DNA from: an uncultured bacterium
GTDB taxonomy: Bacteria > Eisenbacteria > RBG-16-71-46
Direction of reading: 5' to 3'
Assembly (NCBI GenBank): GCA_964418975.1
Contig: CAYQNV010000172.1
Span: 24,301 to 88,300 of the forward strand
Length of the DNA stretch: 64,000 bases
In this document: positions 5,712 to 7,163 of the stretch, piece after piece
Position numbering within the stretch: position 1 is the first letter of the stretch
How the letters are laid out: each line of letters begins with the position of its first letter
Position numbers and translations under genes: made by a program
The notes under the pieces: model-generated
The model's database searches: none
What the model was told of the DNA's origin: nothing
What the model saw: only the letters and a program-made list of their open reading frames with translations

Positions 5712-5756
5712 TGGTGCGCCGCCTTGGAATCGAACCAAGAACCTACTGATTAAGAG
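5712..5756 (-). repeat. 45-bp direct repeat identical to the 3' end of tRNA-Lys(CUU). attR-like partial tRNA copy.
   Basis: TGGTGCGCCGCCTTGGAATCGAACCAAGAACCTACTGATTAAGAG at 5712..5756 is identical to 7088..7132. Flanks diverge immediately outside. Confidence 0.8.
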
Positions 5757-6081
5757 ACCATTACCGCCGCCCGCACGAAGCGACTGTCGCACAACGCATT
5801 CTGAAGACCGACAAGTAATTGCGTGCGCGAAGCACAGGGACTGGAGGGTACGGAAGGGTAACGCAAAGGAACTCGAAACGGGACCACTTGTCCCGTTCTT
5901 GAGGTGGCGCTGTCCACGAAGAGGCCGGTGGCCACGAGGTCACTGATCCCGGGCATTGTCGACAGCAGCTGGGCGCTCGCTCGGATCGGCTCCAGCGATT
6001 TCCCCACCGCGTACATCGATCGTGCAGCATGAACGTTCTCATCCTCTTGCCTGCTGGCGGGCCGGCCGATAGCCTTGCTCG

Positions 6082-6981
6082 ATGCTTCCTGCGACGCTTC
6101 CGCTCGACGCCTACCGCCCGTTCCGCCGCGACGTCGAGGCCCAGCGCCCGGCGATGGCGACGATCGCGTCGCGGCACGGGCTGCCGCGCGCAGAGCTCGC
6201 GCCGTTCTCGGAGGGCACCCAGATCGTCTGGGGCACGCAGCGCTCCGTCATCAAGCTGTTCGTGCCCACGTGGCCCGAGGACGCGCGCGTCGAGATATTG
6301 ATGCTCGAGCGGCTCGTTGGCGCGGGCCTGCCGGTGCCGCAGCTCGAAGCGCGCGGCGAGGTCGCGGGCTGGCCGTACGTCGTGATGAGCCGGCTTCCGG
6401 GCCAGCGCGTTCCCGAGGCATGGCCCGGGCTCGATGCGGACGCGCGCGAGCGGCTGGCGTACGACATCGGCGCGGCGATGGCGCGCCTCGCCGCGCTGCC
6501 CGTGACCGGGCTCGACGCGTTGCGCGCCCCGCAGGAGTCGCTGCTGGCCGAGCGGCGGCCACGGCTGCTTCAGGATCAGCGCGAGCGAGGAGGCGACGAC
6601 GCGCTGGAGGCGCAGCTGCAGACGTTCCTCGACGCGCTGCCGCCGCTGCTGCCGGCCGAAAGCGTCCTGATGCACGCCGACCTGACGGCGGACAACATCC
6701 TCGTGCACGACAGCCGGCTCGCCGGATTCATCGACTTCGCGGACGCCTTCGTGGGCCCGTGGACGTACGAGCTGGCGGCGACCTCCTGCTTCGTGACGCA
6801 GGGCGATCGGCGCTCGCAGCGCGCGCTCCTTTTGGGCCGCGGCGTCGAAGCGACGCCCGAGCTCCTCGTTACGCTGCGCTGCTGGGCTGTGCTCCACCGC
6901 TACGGCCACGTCGCGATAATGATGCAGCACGCCGGCCACGCGAGCCTGTGGAGCTGGCTCGACACGCTGTGGCTGCCCTGA
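6082..6981 (+). CDS. Aminoglycoside/choline-kinase-type phosphotransferase (APH family).
   Basis: Brenner-type motif HADLTADNILVHD and IDFADAF (D-F/W) within a 299-aa product. Confidence 0.65.
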   Translation: MLPATLPLDAYRPFRRDVEAQRPAMATIASRHGLPRAELAPFSEGTQIVWGTQRSVIKLFVPTWPEDARVEILMLERLVGAGLPVPQLEARGEVAGWPYVVMSRLPGQRVPEAWPGLDADARERLAYDIGAAMARLAALPVTGLDALRAPQESLLAERRPRLLQDQRERGGDDALEAQLQTFLDALPPLLPAESVLMHADLTADNILVHDSRLAGFIDFADAFVGPWTYELAATSCFVTQGDRRSQRALLLGRGVEATPELLVTLRCWAVLHRYGHVAIMMQHAGHASLWSWLDTLWLP

Positions 6982-7087
6982 GGACCCGGCGCGCGGTCCG
7001 CTCATCACGAGGCCAGGACCGCTCGGGCTGCTGCGCCCGACATCCGGCGAGACGCTCCTCCGTATCACCGGTCCCCGCTGACTAAGT

Positions 7088-7163
7088 TGGTGCGCCGCCT
7101 TGGAATCGAACCAAGAACCTACTGATTAAGAGTCAGTTGCTCTGCCAATTGAGCTAGCGGCGC
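7088..7163 (-). tRNA. tRNA-Lys (anticodon CUU).
   Basis: Reverse complement GCGCCGCTAGCTCAATTGGCAGAGCAACTGACTCTTAATCAGTAGGTTCTTGGTTCGATTCCAAGGCGGCGCACCA. It has a 7-bp acceptor stem, D, anticodon (loop CTCTTAA) and T arms, and CCA. Confidence 0.9.

Follow-up and report, generated by a model that had tools for sequence, protein, structure and literature searches.

A genomic islet without integrase at the tRNA-Lys(CUU) gene of an uncultured bacterium of the Candidatus Eisenbacteria

The tRNA-Lys(CUU) locus and its insert

We analysed a stretch of 64,000 nucleotides (nt) from an uncultured bacterium (contig CAYQNV010000172.1 of assembly GCA_964418975.1, called the window below), in which a gene for tRNA-Lys(CUU) and a second, partial copy of its 3′ end bracket a short insert. 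An earlier prediction made from the sequence alone (the original prediction) had described this arrangement as the trace of an integrase-less island. The only tRNA of the window, tRNA-Lys(ctt), was placed by ARAGORN at 7088–7163 on the minus strand, with an Rfam score of 71.5 bits. Its last 45 nt (7088–7132) are found again at 5712–5756, on the same strand and without any mismatch, as had been claimed, and identity is 47/48 over 5709–5756 when three more bases are counted. Read in the tRNA sense, the repeat runs from the first nucleotide of the anticodon loop (CTCTTAA) to the CCA end. The window holds no further copy of this 45-mer at 3 mismatches or fewer, and 100 dinucleotide-preserving shuffles produced none.

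The DNA between the two repeats measures 1331 bp, or about 1.3 kb (5757–7087), and contains one credible gene. Next to the partial copy, which we call the distal repeat, lies a non-coding arm of 141 nt (5757–5897, GC content about 57–60%) that ends in a hairpin (5877–5897, AACGGGAC-CACTT-GTCCCGTT). It is followed by a unique spacer (5898–6037), then by a unit on the plus strand (6038–7002) formed by an open reading frame (ORF) of the aminoglycoside phosphotransferase (APH) family at 6082–6981 and its borders, of about 44 nt on the upstream and about 21 nt on the downstream side, and finally by a unique tRNA-proximal end (7003–7087), which leads to the intact gene. Neither 5898–6037 nor 7003–7087 had a nucleotide match in the 203 loci fetched from other genomes, or a domain in any frame (Pfam, PHROG), and the spacer had no match elsewhere in the window. 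Taken as a whole, the insert matched no plasmid or phage. GC content is 57–61% over about 5700–6000, against 70–79% in the flanks. The surrounding genes are housekeeping genes: a large membrane protein (3059–5635), VanZ, hisS (7824–9095) and aspS.

We found neither a recombinase nor a vestige of one in the insert, where every ORF and open stretch was searched for PF00589 and other domains. A tblastn search of the insert with a tRNA-Lys-associated integrase, that of locus L177 (see below), also gave nothing. On this point the original prediction was right. Annotation of the window outside the insert consisted of seven integrase-sized ORFs and was not exhaustive; these ORFs (13341–14447, 17126–18211, 37170–38276, 45174–46115, 47569–48705, 48724–49914 and 59123–60274) are not recombinases.

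Empty sites in relatives

Orthologous loci, designated here by L numbers, were recovered in relatives by anchoring on HisS. Look-ups of the exact protein gave no record for the kinase or the HisS of the window, although P0233, one of the HisS homologues recovered, proved identical to this HisS in every residue. Relatives with 79–83% HisS identity bear the NCBI label Candidatus Eisenbacteria. The two closest ones, L200 (GCA_031396225.1) and L201 (GCA_031397055.1), have HisS proteins 90–91% identical in amino acids and flanks 87–89% identical in nucleotides. They are collinear with the window from 4955 or 4272 to 5756, and again from 7069 to 10922, with one tRNA-Lys in between. L200 and L201 are precise empty sites. 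L090 and L008 (HisS 75–77%) are likewise empty, with a single tRNA joined to the same chromosomal flank. The search for an empty site, proposed with the original prediction, thus succeeded: the insert is absent from these four relatives and the flanks of the empty site are uninterrupted, as in the islands that the Islander catalogue collects. L089, the closest relative in the first scans, was uninformative, as 5 kb of unrelated DNA lie 3′ of its tRNA gene; this stretch encodes YceI-TPR, a LytTR two-component system and a LOG protein, without integrase. The tRNA-Lys gene itself is identical at 76/76 positions among the window, L200, L201, L008 and L089.

The empty sites indicate which of the two 3′ ends is the native one. 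Directly 3′ of the lone tRNA-Lys in L200 and L201 come a GC-rich hairpin and then GGAGA. This flank matches that of the partial copy in the window, and not that of the intact gene: the hairpin (GGCCCGCCGCG...CGACGGGCC, 5674–5698, minus strand) and the adjoining GGAGA now stand after the displaced tRNA fragment. The hairpin in the window is probably the original terminator of the tRNA gene, and L008 has a similar one. The distal repeat is contiguous with a chromosomal flank that is collinear in L200, L201 and L090. Since the native flank adjoins the partial copy, we conclude that the partial copy (5712–5756) is the displaced original 3′ end, and that the insert supplied the 3′ 45 nt (7088–7132) of the present gene.

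The boundary of the repeat

An intact tRNA gene (tDNA) and a displaced fragment in the same orientation, with an island between them, form the arrangement on which the Islander finder was built (regenerated tDNA plus displaced 3′ fragment, PMC4383910). Anticodon-centred sites are the commonest class there, with 2083 of the 3919 islands (PMC4383910). The fragment in the window has its boundary at this canonical crossover sublocation, the anticodon loop. As a control, IMG/VR was scanned with the 3′ segment of tRNA-Lys(CUU), and 27 viral or proviral contigs matched. At least 16 of the 27 carry partial tRNA-Lys copies, in which identity stops at, or within a few nt of, ...GATTAAGAG, and this endpoint is the boundary of the repeat in the window. 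At locus L177, a P4-type tyrosine integrase with the domains PF13356, PF22022 and PF00589 (Arm-DNA-bind_3, Phage_int_M, Phage_integrase) starts 155 nt from the same tRNA-Lys boundary. Because the boundary is shared with proviral copies and belongs to the anticodon-centred class of Islander, the geometry is that of an integrase-mediated insertion. The reading of the two repeats as attachment (att) sites, attL and attR, already put forward in the original prediction, is borne out by this crossover boundary together with the empty sites and the native flank at the partial copy.

Related islets at the same locus

In two other lineages, represented by L168/L198 and by L202, a 45-nt partial tRNA-Lys ends at the same nucleotide as in the window and is followed by a homologous arm. 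The arms are 65–72% identical over 141 nt, from the same junction nucleotide on. Identity is concentrated in the 44 nt beside the boundary and in the terminal hairpin, whose stem is invariant among lineages; L202 has a different loop. No homology extends beyond the hairpin, where identity is at background (33–51%). The lower-GC stretch which the original prediction had noted at 5760–5950 is real, but it is not filler, being for the most part this conserved non-coding arm.

L168 and L198 are two assemblies of one lineage (ERZ1370068 and ERZ3979533), 99.1% identical and obtained from two samples; L198 was reached through P0113, a protein 95% identical to the TetR of L168. Their HisS is only 60% identical to that of the window, and the HisS of L202 is 86% identical. 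L198 contains a tandem array of two islets at tRNA-Lys (9297–14954 in the reverse complement of L198; L168 20118–20307). Islet A consists of a first partial copy and the arm, then a cargo of 3.95 kb with TetR, two dehydrogenases and DUF3237. Islet B has a partial copy of 53 nt with 2 mismatches, a different arm rich in inverted repeats, and a cargo of 1.5 kb with a CARDB-domain gene. In the orientation of the window, the order is chromosomal genes, islet A, islet B, intact tRNA-Lys, PMT_2, VanZ and hisS. Both islets have a GC content of 56–66%, below their surroundings, and neither segment holds a recombinase. In L202, the partial copy and arm are followed by genes for proteins of 1047 and 184 amino acids, then by the intact tRNA-Lys, VanZ and hisS; both proteins have signal-peptide-like N-termini and are predicted to be secreted.

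The window comes from a contig of 105 kb in a metagenome-assembled genome, and repeats can mislead assemblers, so that a chimeric join across the short repeat might be suspected. We hold such an artefact to be most improbable. The same order of partial copy, arm, cargo and intact tRNA was assembled independently in L168 and L198, which come from two samples, and again in the lineage of L202, and a 45-nt repeat is shorter than the usual assembly k-mers.

A further case was found in L001, where a 3′ half of tRNA-Lys (4487–4530) has decayed by a 4-nt deletion and by substitutions, to about 77% identity; the intact tRNA-Lys (15729–15804) is 11.2 kb away. The pair brackets nine genes, among them a homologue of the kinase, and no integrase was found in the bracketed segment. 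It looks like an older islet of the same integrase-less type. In all, five integrase-less islets in four lineages were counted at this one tRNA-Lys locus.

Tandem tRNA genes are common, and the decayed fragment in L001 might suggest that the partial copy in the window is likewise the remains of a second tRNA-Lys gene, the kinase lying between two old copies. The original prediction had named this as one of the cases that would go against it. In four relatives, the chromosomal flank follows directly on the only tRNA-Lys; the fragment agrees perfectly, at 45/45 positions, and stops sharply in the anticodon loop, unlike a full-length gene that has mutated; and the DNA past this boundary is the conserved arm of an element, not tRNA 5′ sequence. 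These observations contradict a decayed tandem gene and leave it hardly any probability.

The relation of arm to cargo could be seen by comparing L198 with L199. Their TetR-dehydrogenase modules (L198 8237–10620, L199 1–2384) are 99.75% identical. In L199, the module has no arm and is followed by a DUF308 gene, and the breakpoint between the two loci is 14 nt from the hairpin of the arm. Divergence at this point means that the arm is a discrete unit to which cargo was joined. A remnant of the TetR gene in the window, at 5898–6045, was also considered, as TetR follows the arm in L168. It was rejected, the tblastx match being to the hairpin only.

The arm does not appear to code for protein. An 88-residue ORF on the minus strand (5750–6016), which the original prediction regarded as degenerate and proposed to compare with integrase and recombinase profiles, is present mechanically and overlaps the arm, but is spurious and no degenerate recombinase: it matched no family (Pfam to E=10, PHROG), and its frame is not kept in the homologous arms, the three arms differing in frames and stops. 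A remnant of an IS110-type transposase, considered on account of a helix-hairpin-helix-like motif in the same ORF (LLSTMPGISDLVATGL), was rejected on these grounds, the frame being conserved neither in L168 nor in L202. A 48-nt block of the arm (5757–5804, minus strand) is in frame, in three lineages, up to the TAA of the anticodon loop (NAL.D..FV.A.V.VS*). Substitutions in the shared block fall mostly at codon positions 1–2, which means that the constraint on the arm bears on DNA and not on protein. This codon-position pattern and the divergent upstream frames argue, at the level of sequence comparison, against coding. A structured RNA formed by the arm and the tRNA half was rejected too, as their fold was not significantly better than that of shuffled sequences (z=−1.5) and Rfam matched only the tRNA.

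The T-stem of tRNA-Lys varies between lineages by compensatory changes. The variants CTTGG/CCAAG, GATGG/CCATC, GAAGG/CCTTC and CTAGG/CCTAG were seen across the tRNA-Lys genes of the window (7088–7163), L202 (4687–4762), L198 (5166–5241) and L090 (5461–5536). In each arm-bearing islet, the partial copy matches the T-stem variant of its own host exactly.

The kinase gene

The APH-family ORF gave a match to PF01636 with E=2e-30 (106.8 bits), and its GC content at third codon positions is 0.92. The closest solved structure is 6IY9, a hygromycin-B 7″-O-kinase (E=5e-20), with which the motifs HADLTADN and IDFAD align. The protein thus has the APH domain with the HxDxxxxN and DFxD motifs of aminoglycoside O-phosphotransferases. 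It shares with APH(7″)-Ia of Streptomyces hygroscopicus (6IY9) the PF01636 fold family, a near-full-length alignment and these catalytic motifs, but is only a distant relative: it scored 66.9 bits, against a cut-off of 640 bits for the NCBIfam APH(7″)-Ia family, and 45.9 bits against 205 for APH(3′). It falls below the cut-off of every named antimicrobial-resistance family of NCBIfam. Of the antibiotic kinase proposed in the original prediction, the APH family and the horizontal mobility of the gene stand, while a role in antibiotic resistance is, as judged from sequence, unproven. The kinase is worth testing for an antibiotic or another small-molecule substrate.

Proteins of this family, of about 296–299 residues, are widespread in soil metagenomes. 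The ratio of nonsynonymous to synonymous divergence (dN/dS) is 0.2–0.4, which indicates that the kinase is under purifying selection. The gene is shared with other lineages as a block made of the ORF, 15–44 nt upstream and 12–21 nt downstream, placed in at least five unrelated neighbourhoods. The blocks (window 6038–7002, L001 7985–8909, L004 2688–3640, L168 9997–10920, L169 9964–10921) are 91–94% identical in nucleotides. Synonymous divergence (dS) of the kinase between the window and L168, L169, L004 and L001 is 0.12–0.17, compared to 0.76 for hisS between the window and L198 (60% amino acid identity), and 0.70 for a membrane-protein gene between the window and L169 (43% amino acid identity). 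The low dS of the kinase, a strong outlier next to about 0.7 for flanking genes, and homology confined to the ORF show that the kinase ORF was recently exchanged horizontally between lineages. As dS is low even where HisS identity between lineages has fallen to 60%, the gene is marked as one in recent horizontal spread through soil and sediment communities. A converse case was given by L005 and L170, where the flanks are 89.5% identical and the kinase genes only 80.4%. Exchange may perhaps proceed by homologous replacement anchored in the ends of the ORF.

The kinase is not tied to islets elsewhere. That of L168 lies 9.2 kb outside the arm-bearing islet, and that of L169 follows membrane-protein genes without any tRNA fragment, so that the link between kinase and islet is specific to the lineage of the window. 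The unit is not an integron gene cassette either: in six contexts its end is only 12–21 nt past the stop codon, too close for an attC site to fit in, and no integrase was found near the kinase. Integron-cassette or transposon ends around the unit were looked for in boundary alignments of seven contexts and rejected, as neither terminal repeats nor attC were present.

The whole insert might also have entered without a recombinase. DNA from a relative, with a tRNA-Lys 3′ segment beside a kinase region, would have been integrated through the 45 nt of identity, by a RecA-dependent Campbell-type event or by a homology-facilitated one. The two copies of the repeat are identical and match the lineage-specific tRNA of the host, the kinase ORF recombines between lineages without island flanks, and the last ~20 nt of the insert weakly resemble the tRNA 3′ flank (about 14/22 to that of L200), all of which would be in keeping with such a route. 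It leaves two facts unexplained: the start of the repeat at exactly the point of the anticodon loop that integrases use, and the presence in three lineages of one non-tRNA arm after one and the same nucleotide. Moreover, 45 bp is close to the shortest length over which homologous recombination is efficient. We consider this route improbable.

Nature and origin of the islet

Taken together, the data are best explained if an element of a clade-specific family was inserted by an integrase-type reaction and is now an integrase-less islet resembling a cis-mobilisable element (CIME). We regard this as probable. The 1331 bp would have entered through the att site in the anticodon loop of tRNA-Lys(CUU), in a site-specific recombination of the kind that a tyrosine integrase catalyses. 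The incoming DNA, bringing its own copy of the last 45 nt of the tRNA, would have restored the gene at 7088–7163 and pushed the original 3′ end and terminator 1376 bp away. What remains would be an islet of the CIME type, with both att-type repeats and no recombinase, belonging to an element family marked by the conserved 141-nt distal arm and its hairpin. Because the distal arm alone is conserved and the proximal ends are unrelated, the integrase may once have been on the tRNA-proximal side, beside the intact tRNA gene, and have been lost by a separate deletion in each lineage, with which the lack of conservation at the proximal ends is compatible. The islet would now move only with a recombinase provided in trans or by a neighbouring element.

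CIMEs are elements that no longer have genes for integration or transfer but retain attL and attR, and that build up in tandem through accretion (PMC5704250). The islet keeps both att-type sites (45/45 repeats, with the conserved arm beside the distal one), lacks integration and transfer genes, and has the APH-family kinase as its sole gene. As to an origin by deletion from an integrative and conjugative element (ICE) or an integrative and mobilisable element, neither the fetched loci nor viral_contigs yielded a parent with the arm. Among known systems, the CIMEs of the ICESt1/ICESt3 family of Streptococcus thermophilus (Pavlovic et al. 2004; PMC5704250) are alike in having att direct repeats at the 3′ end of the target gene, cargo only, no integration or transfer genes, and tandem accretion, to be compared with the array in L198. 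They differ in having been traced to parent ICEs, with cis mobilisation shown experimentally, whereas the present islet is known from sequence; it is also very small (1.3 kb, one gene), sits in the anticodon loop of tRNA-Lys(CUU), and belongs to an uncultured phylum.

The ssrA islands of Dehalococcoides offer another parallel: 15 of them have no integration module and were suggested to be CIMEs (PMC3146451). They too stand in tandem downstream of one small-RNA gene, with 3′-end direct repeats, extra conserved sequence beside the repeat, and highly varied cargo. Their target is the T-loop of transfer-messenger RNA, their repeat is of 20 bp, and 16 islands have a CcrB-like serine recombinase, while here the 45-nt repeat starts from the anticodon loop and no island was found with any recombinase. 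Finally, the islands catalogued by Islander (PMC4383910; classification of Williams 2002, cited there) share the regenerated tDNA, the displaced 3′ fragment and the anticodon-centred att site, but Islander demands an integrase inside the candidate. The present islet, which has none, would be filtered out, and finders that depend on an integrase miss integrase-less islets by design.

Several observations weigh against this origin from an integrase-bearing element. No full-length element with both integrase and arm was recovered: four scans of viral_contigs with arm and hairpin patterns gave 0 matches, and none of about 15 related loci has an integrase-bearing element of this arm. The search for an integrase acting in trans covered only 64 kb of the genome. 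All five islets (window, L198 A and B, L202, L001) are without recombinase, which supposes much independent decay. Conservation is limited to the distal arm, with nothing in common among the tRNA-proximal ends of the islets. The repeats are 45/45 identical in all three arm-bearing islets despite T-stems that differ between lineages, so that donors with the same tRNA sequence, or later homogenisation, are required. Lastly, what other genomes share of the kinase unit is a block the size of the ORF and no island flanks, so that the unit may have arrived in the islet separately.

The absence of recombinases, the lack of a parent element and the perfect repeats would find another explanation if the arm-bearing islets had never been large islands. 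The tRNA 3′ half, the 141-nt arm and the hairpin would then define a family of single-arm, non-autonomous integrative cassettes in Candidatus Eisenbacteria, consisting of att core, arm and cargo, which are inserted, stacked in tandem and removed at tRNA-Lys(CUU) by an integrase specific for tRNA-Lys, whose gene would lie at another place in the genome or on a helper element, with cargo exchanged just beyond the hairpin. The three arm-bearing islets share only att core and arm and carry three unrelated cargoes, of 1.3–4.5 kb; the perfect repeats (45/45) in all three lineages suggest recent activity; the closest relatives are empty; and the comparison of L199 with L198 gives one cargo module with and without the arm. 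Nonetheless, we saw neither a helper integrase nor a circular form, nor any islet in a second copy, and the tRNA-proximal ends are unconserved, though recombinases as a rule require sequence on either side of the core. The arms are also rather divergent (only 65–72% identity). Autonomous elements that decay would leave the same traces, and the published cases speak for decay (PMC5704250, PMC3146451). We therefore judge such a cassette family to be unlikely. If it existed, the tRNA-Lys locus would be a gene-capture platform functionally comparable to an integron. A variant, even less likely, is that the 45-nt repeat is a target duplication produced at insertion, and not an att copy carried by the element; both copies would then always match the host T-stem because of the duplication.

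On the reading that we prefer, insertion by an integrase and later loss of its gene, the islet is a genomic islet of a known kind and calls for no new mechanism. What is new is a member of this kind, with a conserved arm, in Candidatus Eisenbacteria. It provides a fully bounded example of a single accessory gene placed beside housekeeping genes in an uncultured phylum, and its arm is a specific probe with which the autonomous element, still missing, and the integrase of that element could be sought.

Upstream of the tRNA gene

The sequence 5′ of the tRNA gene varies as well. A PMT_2 gene is present between tRNA and VanZ in L198 (3767–4963), and L089 has a gene of 782 codons with Endonuclease_1 and FlgD_ig domains at this place (5261–7609). 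VanZ is absent from L008 (6440–6740). In the window, a promoter-like site, TTGACG-17-TAGATT, was found at 7205–7233 on the minus strand, about 40 nt upstream of the 5′ end of tRNA-Lys. It is a match to a sigma-70-like consensus only, and the consensus scan found 1 such site where 0.1 was expected.

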